IMG/VR virus record: IMGVR_UViG_3300027743_000030
Location: 1,018 to 65,017 of that record
Direction: 5' to 3' (one strand)
Length of the DNA stretch: 64,000 nucleotides
Source: a virus
Lineage: Duplodnaviria > Caudoviricetes
A program made the position numbers and the translations under genes. How positions within the stretch are numbered: the stretch's first letter is position 1; the number at the start of each line of letters is the position of its first letter. Positions 2,931 through 9,774 of this stretch are shown here, in pieces. The notes under the pieces are model-generated. The model worked only from the letters and a program-made list of their open reading frames with translations, ran no database searches and was not told where the DNA came from.

Positions 2931-3131
2931 TTAGCAGTCGTCGTCCACGTCGCGGAAGTCGCCTTCATCCTCGATCTTGAGCTGGCTGCTGGCGAGCAAT
3001 CGCCGCACGTCATCGGACGCAATGTCGGCGAGATACGCAACCGTATGTCCAGCCGGAATGATCAGCTTGCCGCCTCGACCGTCATCAACTTCCAAATCCT
3101 TGTCGGTAACGTTTGTGAGCATGACAGACAT
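2931..3131 (-). CDS. Hypothetical protein
   Basis: MSVMLTNVTDKDLEV...; start approximate. Confidence 0.5.
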   Translation of the reverse strand: MSVMLTNVTDKDLEVDDGRGGKLIIPAGHTVAYLADIASDDVRRLLASSQLKIEDEGDFRDVDDDC

Positions 3132-3251
3132 CGGAGCTGCCCTCCTATTCGAGCTGCAGCACAGTGCCACAAGATCAAAAAGAACGCGCAAAACTTGACT
3201 TTCCGCACTCGAAAATCGCCTAACTCCTTGTTTTGACGTGCCTTATACGGC

Positions 3252-3279
3252 TTGCGAAGCCCAGGGCAGCCGCTATAAT
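3252..3279 (+). promoter_or_regulatory. Candidate sigma70 promoter of the early operon
   Basis: TTGCGA-16 nt-TATAAT in the divergent intergenic region. Confidence 0.45.
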
Positions 3280-3488
3280 CGATTTTCGATTAAGAAGTGA
3301 GTGTTTGCTACCCTGCTGTTTGACAATTCGAGCGCCGCACGACCCGCGTCCAAAGCGACGTGCGCCCTACCCGCAGCTCGATCCATAGTCGCTCCAAGTC
3401 ATGCGCGCTTCGGCATTGCCCCCGAGGATCGAGCCCGACGCGCATAGATGTGGGAGAGACCGAAAACGACTCCATGACAGTGTGACAA

Positions 3489-3599
3489 TACTTAGGACGG
3501 CATGACGCGACTCACGTTGCGCTCGTGCCGTCTCAAAGTGTTGCCTTCGCAACACTCGCCGCGCTTGCAGCGGCGCATCTCAAAATTGGAGTCACGAAA
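3489..3599 (+). ncRNA. Structured leader motif, copy A
   Basis: Hairpin GACGGCATGA/TCGTGCCGTC; AGTGTTGC/GCAACACT; CGCCGC-gCTTGCA-GCGGCG; GGAGTCAC then ATG at 3600. Confidence 0.75.
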
Positions 3600-3797
3600 A
3601 TGAAAGTAGAATTCAGAACCCACGAATACGAGTGGTCGCACGGCAAGCAGCCGCGCGGTTACGGCTATTGGGCGTTTAGCTTTCCCGGCACGCAAGCCGA
3701 CTTCTTTTGGTTTCAAGGCTCGTACAGCGACGCCAAGAAAGCAGCCAAGGACGAAGCGCGCCGCCGCAACTTCGCAGAAGTGAAGGTGATGCCGTGA
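3600..3797 (+). CDS. Small early protein (65 aa)
   Basis: MKVEFRTHEYEWSHGKQPRGYGYWAF...; SD GGAG. Confidence 0.8.
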   Translation: MKVEFRTHEYEWSHGKQPRGYGYWAFSFPGTQADFFWFQGSYSDAKKAAKDEARRRNFAEVKVMP

Positions 3798-3997
3798 GCA
3801 CGTCAATCGATCAGATCAGATTGGCTGACGGCTCGCGCGTTCGCTGCGGGCTGATCGTTCACCGCGTTGACGATCCGTTCCACGTTGCGCGGATCGAGAA
3901 AGTTCACGGCGCAATGAAGCTGACTGTTCAATGGGAGAACGGGTGGCTTGAATTGGGCTGCGAGCCCGACGAATTCCAGCGATGGAATGGAGAGTGA
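3794..3997 (+). CDS. Small hypothetical protein
   Basis: GTGA overlap with previous stop; 67 aa. Confidence 0.65.
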   Translation: MSTSIDQIRLADGSRVRCGLIVHRVDDPFHVARIEKVHGAMKLTVQWENGWLELGCEPDEFQRWNGE

Positions 3998-4094
3998 TCA
4001 CTACAGAGCAGCGCCGCGCGCGCTGCTCGATAGTGTTCATCCTGAACACTCGCCGCCTTGCATGCGGCGTTTCTCGAAACATGAGTCACACATC
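3998..4094 (+). ncRNA. Structured intergenic motif, copy B
   Basis: CACTA..GAGCAGCG/CGCTGCTC..TAGTG; AGTGTTCA/TGAACACT; CGCCGC-CTTGCAt-GCGGCG; GAGTCAC. Confidence 0.8.
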
Positions 4095-5117
4095 ATGACA
4101 AACCACCTTACCGCCCAGGCCGAGGTTTCCATCGCAACGGCAGCCGAGATGATGGAAGATTATACCGAGGCGGGCGACAACGTGTTCCTTTGGGGTGCAC
4201 CCGGCATCGGTAAGACCGATATCGTGCACCAGCTCGGAGCGCGGAAGAAACGTTGCGTCCTCGAATTCCACGCAGCCTTGCGTGAGTCCGTTGATCTGCG
4301 CGGCGTTCCTTCCGTTGATCTCAAGACGGGGACCACCAAATGGTTCACGCCTGACGAGCTACCGCAAGCGAAGCGCGACGGCGAGGAAGGTTATCTGTTC
4401 CTCGACGAATTCAATCAAGCAAGCCCGCAGATGCAAGCGGTGCTTGCCGGGTTGGTGCTGTACGGGACGATTGGCGACTATCGCTTGCCGAAGGGCTGGC
4501 GCTGCATCGCTGCGGGCAACCGCGTCTCTGATCGTGCAGCTGCGCAGCGAATGCCCTCGCACATGCGAAACCGTTTCGCGCACATTTACTGTACGCCAGA
4601 CGTGATTGCGTGGACGAATTGGGCCAGCACGAACGGCGTCGCACCCGAGATGGTTGCTTTCATTCGCTTGCGACGCGAGTTGATCCACCGCATGCCTCGC
4701 GGTGACGAGAATGCGTTTCCCACGCCGAGGTCACTGACCAAGGCTGCGAAATACATCAACGCCGCTGATGATCGTCGCTTGCGATTGTTAGCCGGCCTGA
4801 TCGGTGACGACGTTGCAGCCGAGTTGAACGGCTTCATCCGGCTTTATCGATCGCTCGGCAGCCTGGAAGATATCGTGGCCAATCCCGACCGCGCCAAGAT
4901 ACCGACCGAGCCAAGCGAACGATGGGCAGTCTGCACCGGCCTTGCGCGTCTCGCTGACCGCAAGAATTTCCCGCAGATCATGAAGTATGCCGCACGGCTC
5001 GACGGTGAGCCCGCGACGCTGCTTGTTCATGACGCAACGATGATCAAGCCCGAGCTAAAGCAGACGGCCGCCTATTCGAAGTGGGCCGTTGAACATTCTG
5101 ACTTGATCCTACAGTGA
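4095..5117 (+). CDS. MoxR/CbbQ-like AAA+ ATPase
   Basis: Walker A GAPGIGKT, Walker B LFLDEFNQA, IAAGN sensor, NRF arginine finger, PTPRS. Confidence 0.9.
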   Translation: MTNHLTAQAEVSIATAAEMMEDYTEAGDNVFLWGAPGIGKTDIVHQLGARKKRCVLEFHAALRESVDLRGVPSVDLKTGTTKWFTPDELPQAKRDGEEGYLFLDEFNQASPQMQAVLAGLVLYGTIGDYRLPKGWRCIAAGNRVSDRAAAQRMPSHMRNRFAHIYCTPDVIAWTNWASTNGVAPEMVAFIRLRRELIHRMPRGDENAFPTPRSLTKAAKYINAADDRRLRLLAGLIGDDVAAELNGFIRLYRSLGSLEDIVANPDRAKIPTEPSERWAVCTGLARLADRKNFPQIMKYAARLDGEPATLLVHDATMIKPELKQTAAYSKWAVEHSDLILQ

Positions 5118-5213
5118 CCACTACAGAGGGCAGCGCACGCGCTGCCTTCGATAGTGTTCATGTGAACACTCGCCCCTTGCAGGGCGCTGTCAGAAGACAA
5201 GGAGTCACAAGTC
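5118..5213 (+). ncRNA. Structured intergenic motif, copy C
   Basis: CACTA/TAGTG; GGCAGCG/CGCTGCC; AGTGTTCA/TGAACACT; CGCCC-CTTGCA-GGGCG; AAGGAGTCAC. Confidence 0.8.
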
Positions 5214-6272
5214 ATGACAACGAAACTCAAAGGTGCAGCGAAGCGCGAAGCTAAGGGCTTGCCGCCGATCAAGGCGCGCAAGCCAGTAGCTCCCAAGGCT
5301 GCGATGGCGATGATCAAGCCTGCAGCTGCAGACGTGATCAACGTACCGTATCGCGAGCTAACGAAAGCGCCGAGCAAACCCAGCAAGCCGCTTGCCTCGC
5401 CGCTGTCTCGCAAGGCGACGCTTGTGTCAGTCGCTGTTGCACAGTGGACGGCCCGCAAGCTGGACCGCAAGCTGACCAACGAAGTGTTGCGCTCGAAAGG
5501 CGCGACGCCAGATGCCGGCCGGTTCAACAAGTTGCTGATCGAAGCCAAGCACCTCGAAAAAATCGGCTCACTCGTGTCGCAAGCGCGCAACGCGCACTAT
5601 CGCTACACCAAGCCGTGGTGCGATGACGGTATGCGAATTCTGCCGAACGAGCTTCACCAGAAGTTCGCCGACGAATTCCGTCGCATCAAGCGCGAGTTCC
5701 ACGAGGCGGCCGATGAATTCTGCCGCGACTATCCCTCGTTTATCGAGGAGCGCAGAACGGCGCTTGCGAAGATGTTCAACGAGGCCGACTACCCGAGCGC
5801 GCGGGACATTCGAAGCAAGTTCAAACTCGACTCGAAGTTGTTTCCCGTCCCCGACGTTGGCGACTTTCGCTCTGATACTCTCGACGCTGACACGATCGAG
5901 GATATCAAGCGCGATCTCGCCGAGACAAACGAACGCGTGTTGAGCGACGCCATGAAGCACTCGGCCGAGCAGATCATCAAAGTGGTCGGCCACATGTCGG
6001 AGAAGCTGCACGAGTACAAGCCGAGCAAGAGCAAGAAGGGCAAGAAAACATTTTTCACCAACTCGCTGGTGGAGAATGTTCGTGAGCTTGCAGACTTGCT
6101 GCCTGCGTTCAACTTCACCAACGATCCCGAGTTGAACCGCATTGCAGCTCGCATGAAGCGCGAGCTATGCCAAGACGATGCCAAGGAGCTGCGGGTGAGC
6201 GAACGCGTGCGCGTCACCGTGCAGAAGTCGGCAGACGACATCCTGAAAGATGTCAACAAGCTGCTAGGCTGA
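5214..6272 (+). CDS. DUF3150-like helical protein (AAA/VWA partner)
   Basis: LVSV...WTARKLD...GRFNKLL...TKPW.D.G.R.LP; lies between AAA and VWA genes. Confidence 0.65.
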   Translation: MTTKLKGAAKREAKGLPPIKARKPVAPKAAMAMIKPAAADVINVPYRELTKAPSKPSKPLASPLSRKATLVSVAVAQWTARKLDRKLTNEVLRSKGATPDAGRFNKLLIEAKHLEKIGSLVSQARNAHYRYTKPWCDDGMRILPNELHQKFADEFRRIKREFHEAADEFCRDYPSFIEERRTALAKMFNEADYPSARDIRSKFKLDSKLFPVPDVGDFRSDTLDADTIEDIKRDLAETNERVLSDAMKHSAEQIIKVVGHMSEKLHEYKPSKSKKGKKTFFTNSLVENVRELADLLPAFNFTNDPELNRIAARMKRELCQDDAKELRVSERVRVTVQKSADDILKDVNKLLG

Positions 6273-6366
6273 TCGGCCATAGCGTGAACGGCGAGCGCGC
6301 CTCGCCGTTTGCAGTGGGGCCGTACCTCACTCCGTCCTTGCAGACGGTCAATCAAGGAGTCACACA
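6273..6366 (+). ncRNA. Structured intergenic motif, copy D (diverged)
   Basis: GAACGGCGAG/CTCGCCGTTT; AGTGGGG/CCTCACT; CCGTC-CTTGCA-GACGG; AAGGAGTCAC. Confidence 0.75.
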
Positions 6367-7755
6367 ATGGAAAATCATGACGTGGACAAGACAGCTGCTC
6401 AACGCGTTGCAAAAGCGCGCGCCGAGCTGATCTTGTCGCAAGTGTTCTATTCCGTGCTGGTATCGAACGTTGATCCCAAGCCGTCGCGAGCCGTTCCCAC
6501 GATGGCGACCGATGGGCGCAACCACTTCTATAATCCAGACTTCATTGCGACGTTGACACAGACACAGCTGCTCGCAGTGCAAGCGCACGAAAGCGAACAC
6601 GATGCCCGCCGCCATCACAGCCGCAGAAACGGCCGTGATCCCGAGGAGTGGAACATCGCTTGCGATCTCGCAATCAATCCTGATCTGCAAGACGCAGGCT
6701 TCCAGCTCCCCGAGTGGGTGCTGCTCGATCGGAAATACCGAGGCATGTCTGCCGAGGATATCTACCGAACGCGGGAGCTTGATCGCGCCAAGCAGCAACA
6801 GCAGGACGATGATCAAGACGAGCCTTCGGAAGAGGAACTTGACGACGCCGAGGCCGAGGCGAACAAGGGCGACGCTGACGACGACGACAACGACAACGAC
6901 AACGACCACGGCGACTGCAACGAAAACGAAGACGAGGACAGCAGCGGCGACACCGGCGACGGTGACGGCGACGAGCAGTCAGAGGATGACGCCAGCCCCG
7001 GCGACGGGGAGGGTGAAGGCAAGGGCGATCCGACAAGCAGCGGCGACCCTGGCCGCATGGGCGAAGTGCTCGACGCTTCCGAGAACGTCGCCGAGCTGGC
7101 AGCTGCAGACAGTCAGTGGGAAACAATCCTGCGACAAGCTGCATTCCTTGCCGAGAAACGCGGCACGATGCCCGGCCATGTCACGCGTGAAATCAAGCGC
7201 GCTGACAACCCGCCGCAAGACTGGCGTGAGACGTTGCGAGCATACTTTGATCAAGGCTCGCTCAAGATCGAAACATGGAACCGGCCCAATCGTCGCTTTG
7301 CCGGTGCGGGCATTTACTTGCCCGGCCAGCGTCGCGACGGCATCAACCGCGCCGTGTTTCTGATCGATACCAGCGGCTCGATGGATCAAGTTGCGCTCGC
7401 TTGCATCAACAATGAAGCCCAAGCCGCGCTGGACGACGGTGTGCTTGATGAAGTTGACGTGATCTATGGCGACACGCGAGTCACTCGTGTCGACAACTAC
7501 CGCCAAGGCGACGAAATACAATTCGATCCCCGAGGCGGGGGCGGCACTGATCTCAAGCCGCTGTTCAAGCACGTAGCAGACGAAATTGAGGACGCGTCCT
7601 TGATCGTCTGTTTCTCAGACATGGAAATTGGCGATCCTGGCCCCGAGCCCGCGTGCCCCGTGCTGTTCGCAGCAACGGGGTATCCCGAGAGCGTGCGCCG
7701 TTATCTCGCCAATGCTCCGTGGGGCGCGCCCGGCATCGATGTCGGCACGCATTGA
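6367..7755 (+). CDS. DUF2201-type putative metallopeptidase + VWA domain protein
   Basis: TMATDG, HESEH (HExxH), WNIACDLAIN, long acidic linker, MIDAS DTSGS, GGGGTD. Confidence 0.9.
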   Translation: MENHDVDKTAAQRVAKARAELILSQVFYSVLVSNVDPKPSRAVPTMATDGRNHFYNPDFIATLTQTQLLAVQAHESEHDARRHHSRRNGRDPEEWNIACDLAINPDLQDAGFQLPEWVLLDRKYRGMSAEDIYRTRELDRAKQQQQDDDQDEPSEEELDDAEAEANKGDADDDDNDNDNDHGDCNENEDEDSSGDTGDGDGDEQSEDDASPGDGEGEGKGDPTSSGDPGRMGEVLDASENVAELAAADSQWETILRQAAFLAEKRGTMPGHVTREIKRADNPPQDWRETLRAYFDQGSLKIETWNRPNRRFAGAGIYLPGQRRDGINRAVFLIDTSGSMDQVALACINNEAQAALDDGVLDEVDVIYGDTRVTRVDNYRQGDEIQFDPRGGGGTDLKPLFKHVADEIEDASLIVCFSDMEIGDPGPEPACPVLFAATGYPESVRRYLANAPWGAPGIDVGTH

Positions 7756-7850
7756 TCACTAAGCGCGGCCCTGCGGGGCCGCGTCATAGTGTTCAATCGA
7801 ACACCCCGCACTTGCAGCGGGTGATCTGCAAAAGGAAAGGAAGTCACATC
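7756..7850 (+). ncRNA. Structured intergenic motif, copy E
   Basis: CACTA/TAGTG; GCGCGGCCC/GGGCCGCGT; GTGTTC/GAACAC; CCCGC-aCTTGCA-GCGGG; GGAAGTCAC. Confidence 0.8.
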
Positions 7851-8117
7851 ATGACTGCTACCAAACGTAAACCGAGCCCCGTCATGCAACGGGCCGGGCG
7901 CGACGCGCGCGTCAGCAGGGAGGTCAATGCTGCTCTGGCTCAAGTCGAACGCGAGTTGATCGCTATCATCAAAAAAATCTGCGCTCCACGCTACAAGCAG
8001 AAAGAGACGATCAGCCCCGCTCAAGCCTATCGTCTCGCCAATCAGCGTCATCGTGGACCGGGACCGACGCCAGCGCGGCTGATGTACAAGATACAAAACG
8101 GCAGCAAAGTACCGTGA
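7851..8117 (+). CDS. Small basic hypothetical protein
   Basis: ATG directly after motif E; 88 aa. Confidence 0.7.
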   Translation: MTATKRKPSPVMQRAGRDARVSREVNAALAQVERELIAIIKKICAPRYKQKETISPAQAYRLANQRHRGPGPTPARLMYKIQNGSKVP

Positions 8118-8210
8118 TCACTGCAGAGGGGCTGCAACGTGCAGCCCTTCGACAGTGCTCATCCGAGCACTCCCGCCTTGCAGCGGGTTATCTGAAAAGG
8201 AGTCACGTCA
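8118..8210 (+). ncRNA. Structured intergenic motif, copy F
   Basis: CACTG/CAGTG; GGGCTGC/GCAGCCC; AGTGCTC/GAGCACT; CCCGC-CTTGCA-GCGGG; AAGGAGTCAC. Confidence 0.8.
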
Positions 8211-8381
8211 ATGGAACCCTATACAATCTTTCTGATCGTCTGCGCTGTCTTGGGCGTTCTGCTCATTCGCTACATGGGCGGCAATAACCCATTCACCACG
8301 CGGCTTTGCAATGCGTGTCGCGAAGTCATCAATGACCGTGCGGAAATCTGCCCGCACTGCCACACCGCGACCGGGAAGTGA
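8211..8381 (+). CDS. Membrane-anchored zinc-ribbon protein (56 aa)
   Basis: Manual translation MEPYTIFLIVCAVLGVLLIRY...CNAC...CPHC; too short for ORF track. Confidence 0.75.
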   Translation: MEPYTIFLIVCAVLGVLLIRYMGGNNPFTTRLCNACREVINDRAEICPHCHTATGK

Positions 8382-9109
8382 TCGCGATGACAACGATCCC
8401 CAAATGGAAACCGCTGCGGCGCGCCGGCACCAAGCCAGCGTCTGCAGCATTGATCGGCGAGACAATGCGCATTTACAAAATCAACGCCGAGGAAGCGAAG
8501 CGCATGCTGGATGAATACGAATCGGGAAGCGAATACTGGCTCAACGATCTGTATCAAGTGCAAGTGCGTCGCTTCGACGTTGCCGGTGTGCACATCAACA
8601 TCCGGCGACGCGACGGCGGCCCGATCCTGCGTGACTGGCGACACTTCCAGCAGATCAAGAATGAGCTGCTGGGGCCAGAGTGCGAAGCGATCGAGCTGTA
8701 CCCCGCCGAGAGCCGCAAGGTGGACGAGTCGAACAAGTACCACCTATTCGGCTACAGCGACGGCCGGCGCATCCCGATCGGCTTCGAAACTCGCAACGTC
8801 AATCTGGACACGCAAGGCGATCGCAAGACCGATCGTGGAATGCGTCAGCGCGGCAAGACGATGGAATTCCCCGAGGGAGTTCCGACGCGGCGTTGCCAAA
8901 TGTGCGGAGCGATCGAGGACGAAATGCACCACGATCGATCCGCGCGCGATCGTGTCACGACGCTGAGCCAGATCACGCATGAAGACAAGCCGATGCTGGT
9001 TTGCATGTTGTGCGAGGAAGGCCACAGCGAATGGAAAGCGGCGCAATGCTGTTCCTATCACGCCAACGGCGGCGACTTGTCGCTTAGTTGTGGCGGGGAC
9101 ACGCCATGA
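8378..9109 (+). CDS. Phage protein with C-terminal Cys cluster
   Basis: DWRHFQQIKNELLGPECEAIELYPAES..VD..N.YHL motif; CQMC/CMLC. Confidence 0.75.
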   Translation: MIAMTTIPKWKPLRRAGTKPASAALIGETMRIYKINAEEAKRMLDEYESGSEYWLNDLYQVQVRRFDVAGVHINIRRRDGGPILRDWRHFQQIKNELLGPECEAIELYPAESRKVDESNKYHLFGYSDGRRIPIGFETRNVNLDTQGDRKTDRGMRQRGKTMEFPEGVPTRRCQMCGAIEDEMHHDRSARDRVTTLSQITHEDKPMLVCMLCEEGHSEWKAAQCCSYHANGGDLSLSCGGDTP

Positions 9110-9345
9110 GAACGCTCGCCATCTGCGCCGTCCTGATCGTCCTGACAGGATCGGCGACTGCCGGCTCGGCATCGTACTACCGAGCCAACGGCAGCTATGC
9201 CGGATCATCCATCACTCGCAACGGCCACACCACCTACACCAATTCCGGTGGGGCCTATGTCGGATCGTCCAGCACGCGCGGAAACACCACGACGGTCTAT
9301 GATCGCAACGGCAGCCGCGCCGGATCGATCGTGGGGAGACGCTGA
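9106..9345 (+). CDS. Small secreted repeat protein
   Basis: Signal peptide then three YxxxGxxxGS-like repeats. Confidence 0.7.
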   Translation: MRTLAICAVLIVLTGSATAGSASYYRANGSYAGSSITRNGHTTYTNSGGAYVGSSSTRGNTTTVYDRNGSRAGSIVGRR

Positions 9346-9346
9346 C

Positions 9347-9529
9347 ATGAACCGCAGCGACTTCTTTGATCAAGGTTACGAGCAGCACAAGGACGCCCCC
9401 GACATGCTGCTCGCGGAAGTCTGGCGTTTTGCTTGCATGTTCATCGATGATCAAGAGAATGCCCGCGCCTTCGTTGAAGGCTACACCGCCGCGCGCAAGC
9501 AGCGCGACGAGCACCAGAAGGAAGACTGA
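9347..9529 (+). CDS. Hypothetical protein (60 aa)
   Basis: SD GGAG, MNRSDFFDQGY... Confidence 0.65.
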   Translation: MNRSDFFDQGYEQHKDAPDMLLAEVWRFACMFIDDQENARAFVEGYTAARKQRDEHQKED

Positions 9530-9534
9530 AACTC

Positions 9535-9572
9535 AAAAGCCCCGACTGCGCGAGCAGCCGGGGCTTTTTTTT
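9535..9572. terminator. Intrinsic terminator, probably bidirectional
   Basis: AAAA-GCCCCGACTGC-GCGA-GCAGCCGGGGC-T8; the plus-strand A.C mismatch is a G.U pair on the minus strand. Confidence 0.85.
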
Positions 9573-9578
9573 GGCGTG

Positions 9579-9774
9579 CCGGTCTTGCATTCCGACAGCC
9601 CGCCGCGCGCTCTGCGAGTCACGAGCACGGCGCGCGCGATTGCGCAAACGTATCGGCTTCGCCTCGCACTCGCAACGGACCATTTGCCCAAGTCTAGCGC
9701 GTTCGTTTTCAACTTGCGGCGAGGCTGTGCGGTGACGTTTTCATCTTGCAAAAATATCCCTTGTGCAAGACCGG
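9579..9774. ncRNA. Candidate multi-stem non-coding RNA
   Basis: Terminal 11-bp inverted repeat CCGGTCTTGCA/TGCAAGACCGG; inner ACAGCCCGCCGC/GCGGCG(A)GGCTGT; TGCGAGT/ACTCGCA. Confidence 0.5.

Follow-up and report, generated by a model that had tools for sequence, protein, structure and literature searches.

Structured RNAs serving as punctuation in phage operons have been described in no more than a few model phages. In phage T7, RNase III signals lie at the junctions between the early genes; each is formed in the sense RNA as an interrupted hairpin that spans about two helical turns and contains an internal loop. Translational coupling by a structure that the ribosome opens has been described for RNA phages and for some ribosomal-protein operons, in which the opened helix masks the downstream start. 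The present study analysed a repeated RNA element at the gene junctions of one operon in a virus (Duplodnaviria; Caudoviricetes) held as IMG/VR virus record IMGVR_UViG_3300027743_000030 (65,017 bp, judged complete). Bases 1018-65017 of this record, 64,000 nucleotides (nt), were studied and are called the window hereafter. The closest published concept is that of the SAS and ESAS repeats of Cluster K mycobacteriophages (PMC3203893). In that paper, SAS is a 13-bp box, GGGATAGGAGCCC, lying 3-7 bp before start codons, to which the authors assigned no definite function and which they thought to concern translation initiation; for the ESAS repeats they found no support for RNA pairing and favoured DNA-binding proteins. 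SAS/ESAS and the present element are alike in having an asymmetric conserved box with a Shine-Dalgarno (SD) core a few bases before the start of many genes, a single orientation, a strong preference for ATG and often an upstream inverted repeat, the SAS genes being non-structural. Such repeated start-site boxes have stood unexplained for over a decade.

A structured sense-strand RNA at the junctions of one operon

Six sense-strand copies of the element (A to F, Table 1), each of about 95-120 nt, occupy every non-overlapping gene junction between 3.48 and 8.21 kb and extend from stop codon to start codon. An earlier note, made from the sequence alone, had placed six copies here on the plus strand with spacers B to F of 93-97 nt. 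Sequence and covariance models both bear this out, the measured spacers being 97, 96, 94, 95 and 93 nt. The covariance models were seeded from four well-aligned copies because unaided MAFFT misaligned the hairpins P1 and P3. Over the 64 kb, model R1 recovered all six copies at E <= 4.7e-8 with an antisense stretch as its next match (E 0.0013), and model R2 recovered exactly these six at E <= 5.3e-14; no copy was found elsewhere in the window by these models. The simple anchor CTTGCA-gap-AGTCAC matched seven times in the window against 0.19 expected from shuffles, and six of the matches are the copies, while the seventh (9584-9622) is not a copy. Folding against shuffled sequences gave z of -3.4 to -4.9 for five of the six copies and -1.8 for copy D. 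The paired state was observed in 125 of 126 pair cells of the six copies, with six G.U pairs against no A.C.

Relatives were gathered by pattern scans and protein-guided searches of viral contigs, and also from metagenome contigs. Model R2 gave 93 hits in 28 loci, from which one antisense artefact was removed and 80 distinct copies were left; joining loci with an identical copy in common reduced the 28 loci to 24 groups. Each locus holds one to seven copies, in most cases more than one, invariably in gene orientation. The complete relative G008 (64,226 bp, with terminal repeats) has seven sense copies, all of them between 32.8 and 38.3 kb, and since the copies are confined in this manner both here and in G008, the element belongs to the operon and not to the genome at large. 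The suggested association with AAA, DUF3150 and DUF2201 genes was found in many contigs, the element preceding an AAA gene in 12 loci, a DUF3150-like gene in 11 and a DUF2201-like gene in 10. It also precedes singleton open reading frames (ORFs), which account for 31 of the 43 clusters of downstream proteins (the Pfam check of downstream genes covered the window members). Its presence before three core genes and 31 unrelated singletons marks it as a junction module of general use. In L125, a distant relative with 58% DUF2201 identity, five junctions each carry a shortened element, in which a single G+C hairpin is followed by an A/C-rich linker and then by AAGGAGUCC and ATG; the full three-hairpin form occurs at one of its junctions only. 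A pattern search of prokaryotes (one genome per species) returned four stretches, none of them a copy by the model, so that no clue to the host was obtained. Among cultured phages no relative was detected by blastn, and tblastn gave only distant DUF2201 homologues at about 34% identity; in one of these, Vibrio phage D520, the ATPase and VWA genes lie 9 nt apart with no element, the best model match having E 0.015.

Near-identical pairs of copies were observed inside single genomes, at 5784-5884 and 6286-6382 of L123 and at 4092-4189 and 8319-8417 of L182, where they enclose unrelated genes. Such pairs suggest recent duplication or gene conversion at the repeat, which makes cassette turnover a likely consequence of the repeat.

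The anatomy of the unit was derived from the 80-copy family. The unit opens with UGA at positions 1-3 and continues with nCA. The stem of hairpin P1, 9 bp of G+C, is free in sequence, and between P1 and pair 10-72 (AU in 37 copies, GC in 37) lies a 2x2 internal loop with conserved A residues; a 1x1 mismatch accompanies this loop. In P2, (A)GUGUUC pairs with GAACAC(U); GUG/CAC hardly varies, and the inner pairs show compensation. P3 has 4-6 bp of free sequence with all five modelled pairs compensated, and its loop is exactly CTTGCA in 71 of the 80 copies. The linker after P3 is pyrimidine-rich and then A-rich, leading to the SD box GGAGUC(AC) and the start codon, which is ATG in 79/80. The AGUCAC box proposed in the earlier note holds for the window copies and shrinks to GGAGUC in the family as a whole (GAGTC in 63/80, GAGTCAC in 37/80). 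GGAGTC is not the general ribosome site of this phage, as it occurs 16 times in the 64 kb against 29 expected, and those occurrences seen before a start codon belong to copies.

Covariation establishes the fold and its strand. Alignment A6, fitted to the model structure, has 1679 pair cells, of which 97.0% hold standard pairs; two-sided changes occur in 20 of its 21 pairs (377 cells). The paired share fell to 69.3% after column shuffles and to 35-54% when the partner was slid by 1-3 columns. An unfitted MAFFT alignment of 23 copies also revealed compensatory changes in 10 of 12 predicted pairs. G.U and U.G pairs number 97 against nine A.C and C.A, a bias with which the opposite strand could not form the fold. 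The stems differ with compensation even between copies of one genome, which argues against a double-stranded protein-binding site; compensated stems together with the sense-strand bias show selection on the RNA itself. The claims of the earlier note that pairing is kept though stem sequences differ, that G.U pairs favour the plus strand and that the unit is a structured sense-strand RNA are therefore upheld, by covariation, G.U bias, fixed gene orientation and stop-to-start placement. Its statement that no named family was recognised is in accordance with Rfam 15, whose models (including hammerhead, twister, pistol, hatchet and phage motifs) gave no match in the 64 kb at gathering scores; at E <= 1 the region 3200-8400 gave only two irrelevant weak hits, mir-4018 and sR1. 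ARAGORN found no tRNA or tmRNA gene in the window. Literature searches returned no paper joining DUF3150 and DUF2201 in phages and none on a CUUGCA loop in phages, and wider searching gave nothing relevant among the papers listed. We conclude with high confidence that the element is a real feature and represents a new RNA family.

Mutually exclusive pairings, the stop codon and the leader

The strand YAGUGUUCA is shared by two helices. It pairs either upstream with UGAnCACUR, giving a helix P0 that encloses P1, or downstream with GAACACU, giving P2. The three hairpins described in the earlier note are present, but its 'P1 base' (CACUR/YAGUG) and its P2 (AGUGUUC/GAACACU) are mutually exclusive because both use the same AGUG; this competition, and the anti-SD of the leader described below, had been missed in an account that is otherwise partly borne out. 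P0 and P1 together make a rod of about 18 bp with interruptions, and the upstream stop codon either belongs to its 5' strand or adjoins it. The outer part of P0 is 90.3% paired and the inner part 79.9%. Since most copies carry the consensus shared strand, the copies that depart from it are the informative cases, and in these both partners are changed to match, as in AGUCCAGCG with CGCUGCACU (L183:1826) and CGAUGCACUA with UAGUGUACCG (L182:5774). For the 24 non-consensus copies, P0 had an energy of -9.83 kcal/mol with its own partner and -6.32 kcal/mol with foreign partners, and P2 had -8.75 against -4.90 kcal/mol, with none of 2000 permutations as low in either case. When only the competing core of P0 was taken (20 copies), the values were -6.86 and -4.54 kcal/mol, with 0 of 5000 permutations as low.

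The thermodynamic ensemble of 78 copies gave mean probabilities of 0.61 for P0 and 0.33 for P2, and both exceeded 0.1 in 36% of the copies. Blocking of the first 14 nt, as by a terminating ribosome, raised P2 to 0.96. In the window the P0/P2 probabilities are 0.94/0.06 for copy B, 0.72/0.28 for C, 0.01/0.98 for D, 0.66/0.34 for E and 0.69/0.31 for F. The rod strand of copy A differs in sequence, CAAUACUU being paired with AAGUGUUG, and its isolated rod has 25 bp. Three further pairings were considered and rejected. Kissing of the partly self-complementary loop (UUGCAR), judged from sequences only, had no support; neither had pairing of the P3 loop with UGCAG in the 5' strand, where the base concerned already covaries in P0. 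Pairing of the shared strand with the 3' tail of 16S rRNA is argued against by the copies with other shared strands.

An open frame of 45 codons or more precedes 69 of the copies, and the position of its stop was counted in these. In 42 the stop coincides with the first triplet of the element; in 23 it is 2-14 nt and in three 30-41 nt upstream of the element, and in one it falls 21 nt inside. Translation therefore ends on or just before the 5' strand of P0 and almost never enters the fold. In the window, copies B, C, E and F include the upstream stop UGA, and in D the stop lies 6 nt before the modelled start.

Copy A lies in the operon leader and has no gene before it. The parts listed for it in the earlier note are present, to which is added a predicted closing helix between the leader anti-SD and the SD box, enclosing all copy A hairpins and covering the SD of gene 1. 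The hexamer GACUCC occurs 15-21 nt upstream of 6 of the 80 copies, compared with a background of 0.23 per kb on the gene strand, and all six copies are the 5'-most of their array (the window, L123, L207, L198, L102 and L020). In the other five arrays the helix, as read from the sequences, would have 6-9 bp. SD masking is thus predicted to be used in this system at the sole place without an upstream gene, the first copy. A three-codon mini-ORF (ATG ACA GTG TGA, 3474-3485) directly follows the leader anti-SD, has no well-spaced SD before it and ends on a TGA that aligns with element position 1; it is kept in the window, L123, L207 and L198 and is absent from L102 and L020. Further upstream in the leader, at about 3405-3445, GGCATTGCC, a short gap and GGATCGAGCCCGACGCG are found, and this arrangement recurs before the first copy in L123, in L207 and even in the divergent L183.

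Proposed mechanism and competing explanations

The element probably coordinates expression of the operon genes. The reading that we prefer, tentatively, is that each unit may be a cis-acting structured junction module of the sense mRNA that is refolded by the terminating ribosome. In the absence of upstream translation the rod (P0+P1) would be favoured. A ribosome terminating on the 5' strand would melt P0, and the freed shared strand would then snap into P2. With P2, P3 and the standard SD box in place, the next cistron would be open to expression or to recognition by a shared factor, and expression would be handed on along the operon one gene at a time. The leader has no preceding gene, and there the dedicated anti-SD GACUCC(A) would keep the first SD box closed. 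The analysis shows the fold, its strand, the competing pairings and their placement at stop and start codons, and predicts the leader helix; the ribosome as driver of the switch, and what the switch may control, we infer. The geometry of ribosome-opened coupling is found here: the helix includes the end of the upstream cistron, and blocking 14 nt removes P0. The stronger proposal of a termination-sensing RNA toggle, in which the ribosome finishing one gene would flip the rod to P2 and only then would the next start site be used, is rather doubtful. If it were true, translation would run through the operon in relay fashion, unrelated genes could be inserted by means of the stop-to-start module, and the element would be a bacterial-virus counterpart, modular and repeated, of termination-dependent reinitiation elements.

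Several points weigh against a ribosome-driven switch. In 27 of the 69 copies the stop lies elsewhere than at position 1, and there a terminating ribosome would melt P0 only partly. The closed form is not predicted to mask the SD or start of internal copies, as the SD was unpaired at 0.476 in the free fold and 0.490 with the 5' strand blocked (p 0.15), a second comparison giving 0.379 and 0.394. Masking of the SD by the freed 3' strand of P2 (ACUC with GAGU) was rejected, the predicted pairing being only 0.034. The CUUGCA loop is left unexplained by a ribosome-driven switch. The paired-cell counts from A6 are inflated by the fitting of that alignment, and since many copies are related, the shuffle and permutation counts are not probabilities.

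A translation-linked switch, processing of the RNase III type and a shared protein operator are not exclusive of one another. It is possible, at a lower probability than the preferred reading, that the unit serves as processing or stability punctuation, in which a double-strand-specific enzyme would cut the P0+P1 rod between cistrons; the shared strand thus released would refold to P2, leaving the downstream mRNA capped at the 5' end by the P2 and P3 hairpins and the upstream mRNA with a 3' hairpin. Of 80 copies folded without the 3' strand of P2, 79 formed one rod each, of 18.4 +/- 1.8 bp (17-20 bp in 65 of the 79), and the first copies reach the same or greater length, 22-25 bp, through a longer P1. 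An irregular, internally looped hairpin of some 20 bp is thus present between cistrons of a phage operon, with a conserved 2x2 loop and a 1x1 mismatch, and processing would account for the retention of both P0 and P2 without ribosomes. However, the rod is at the short end for RNase III, its mean occupancy is only 0.61 and near 0 in some copies (A, D), and the invariant CUUGCA loop, the SD box, the preference for ATG and the leader anti-SD are left unexplained. Under a further reading the element would be a common operator: a phage or host RNA-binding protein, such as a translational repressor or a nuclease that cuts the SD, would bind P3 with its loop and the GGAGUC box by the start codon, so that all cistrons are repressed, activated or cleaved in concert. 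The near constancy of the loop on a freely varying P3 stem, the rarity of GGAGTC in the window, where only copies were seen to carry it before a start codon, and the distant relative whose junctions retain the box beside a single hairpin agree with such a protein. No candidate binding protein was found, the small operon proteins being without family, and neither the P0/P2 competition nor the placement of the stop codon is explained; an operator could coexist with the other models, and as the explanation of the element it is improbable. The earlier note had also considered a small RNA as partner, and a phage-encoded antisense RNA to the 8-nt SD box was rejected, as the complement of GGAGTCAC is absent from both strands of the window outside the copies.

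The remaining two explanations, at the level of DNA and of self-cleavage, are unlikely. In the former, the repeat would be a cassette-shuffling recombination boundary, a promoter or a single-stranded DNA hairpin site, and the RNA fold would be incidental. The singleton proteins flanked by the repeat, 31 of 43 downstream clusters, and the near-identical copies within L123 and L182 would suit a recombination boundary, but the stems are compensated inside a single genome, the G.U bias follows the sense strand and the element terminates in an SD and ATG. As a promoter, the element lacks a two-hexamer sigma-70 site in any copy, and the distance from CTTGCA to the box ranges from 15 to 25 nt among the window copies, a variation of 10 nt; an intrinsic terminator is likewise found at no copy on the plus strand, the tail after P3 being merely pyrimidine-rich. 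These results make a DNA-level element very unlikely. A self-cleaving ribozyme of an undescribed class, an option raised in the earlier note from ribozyme-like motifs between phage genes, is still less probable, to the point of being extremely unlikely. Conserved unpaired nucleotides beside helices and multi-copy intergenic placement in phage DNA are consistent with it, yet no Rfam 15 ribozyme matched at gathering score or E <= 1, the hairpins stand in a row and not around a junction or pseudoknot core, and the candidate UGCAG-P3 loop pairing occurs in part of the copies only and uses a base that covaries within P0.

Operon setting and comparison with known systems

The window has a G+C content of 61.8%, and its PHROG matches (major head, baseplate, tail-fibre and endolysin proteins) are those of a tailed phage. 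The plus-strand operon comprises a leader of about 310 nt, seven genes, further overlapping genes without spacers and a terminator (Table 1). The candidate promoter is the sole promoter-like site within 3100-9700. The seven genes encode, in order, proteins of 65 and 67 amino acids (aa), neither with a Pfam or PHROG family, an AAA_5 ATPase, a DUF3150 protein, a DUF2201_N plus DUF2201 (VWA-like) protein, and proteins of 88 and 56 aa. The GTGA overlap at 3794-3797, between the first two genes, is the sole junction of this stretch without a copy, and the genes beyond 8381 overlap and carry no element.

Table 1. Coordinates of the operon features in the window and of the shortened elements in the distant relative L125
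Feature	Position	Strand	Details
Candidate sigma-70-like promoter of the operon	3252..3279	+	TTGCGA, 16 nt, TATAAT; consensus match at 10/12 positions
Leader anti-SD GACUCCA	3468..3474	+	Predicted 7-bp helix with UGGAGUC 3587-3593, in minimum free energy and centroid folds
Copy A, operon leader	3483..3602	+	Long P1, P2, P3 with loop GCUUGCA, SD box GGAGUCAC, ATG 3600
Small genes, 65 aa (3600-3797) and 67 aa (3794-3997)	3600..3997	+	GTGA overlap, no element between
Copy B	3995..4097	+	Stop UGA and P0 5' strand 3995-4003; P1 4006-4028; ATG 4095
Copy B, middle parts	4031-4039; 4032-4050; 4051-4069; 4082-4089	+	Shared strand; P2; P3 (loop 4057-4063); SD box
AAA_5 (MoxR-type) ATPase gene	4095..5117	+	PF07728, E 3.7e-7; phrog_1297 ATPase, E 7.9e-79
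Copy C	5115..5216	+	Covariance model match
DUF3150 gene	5214..6272	+	Pfam PF11348, E 5.6e-7
Copy D, variant	6270..6369	+	P2 GUGGGG/CCUCAC with G.U pair; 5' strand differs
DUF2201_N + DUF2201 (VWA-like) gene	6367..7755	+	PF13203, E 4.4e-37; PF09967, E 1.1e-13
Copy E	7753..7853	+	SD box GGAAGUCAC
88-aa gene	7851..8117	+	No family in Pfam or PHROG
Copy F	8115..8213	+	P2 GUGCUC/GAGCAC, compensated
56-aa gene	8211..8381	+	Weak zinc-ribbon matches under the Pfam cut-off
Intrinsic terminator ending the operon	9538..9572	+	G+C stem followed by eight U; -36.3 kcal/mol, z -3.6
L125 junctions with shortened form	1971-2036, 2295-2414, 4397-4456, 5959-6022		

The DUF2201 protein contains a long acidic low-complexity insert rich in D, E, N and G between its two Pfam domains (window 6790-7030). 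It matches PHROG 1314 (E 8.2e-88), which is labelled 'HNH endonuclease', a label repeated in GenBank phage records; this label looks doubtful because Pfam gives a metallopeptidase-like plus VWA-like architecture. Directly after the operon terminator, positions 9584-9622 carry CTTGCA, 27 nt and AGTCAC, both words of the element, and are not a copy by either model. The same arrangement follows the terminator in L123 and L124, and it may be a promoter-like or an unrelated site.

The family is a good test case, offering 80 distinct copies with rich covariation, two exclusive pairings that both follow one common strand, a fixed relation to stop and start codons and a predicted leader lock. These features make it a tractable system for the coupling of translation, processing and mRNA folding between cistrons, and the module, if portable, could provide a standard junction for synthetic operons.

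The comparison with known systems revealed partial likeness in each case. The RNase III sites of T7 resemble the element in being interrupted hairpins repeated at phage operon junctions. The element, in contrast, embeds an SD box, adds two hairpins, one of them with an invariant loop, and allows a competing pairing. As in translational coupling, the end of the upstream cistron is drawn into a helix that an upstream ribosome would disrupt; the element differs in that the nearest-neighbour model predicts no masking of the start for internal copies, and in being a repeated module of about 95 nt. Integron attC sites are also structured repeats of conserved shape, variable sequence and strand-specific fold that bound unrelated small genes. 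Each attC is one long imperfect single-stranded DNA hairpin with its own conserved boxes beside an integrase, while the element has three hairpins, an SD and ATG; no integrase context was seen, though no systematic search for an integrase or for R/L boxes was made. From SAS, the closest concept, it differs both in sequence and in host, the box GGGATAGGAGCCC standing against GGAGUC(AC). SAS sites are scattered over half a genome, whereas the element is confined to one operon, and pairing was unsupported for ESAS, while in the element 97% of cells are paired and 20 of 21 pairs are compensated. The alternative helix linked to the stop codon is a property of the present element and not of SAS (PMC3203893).

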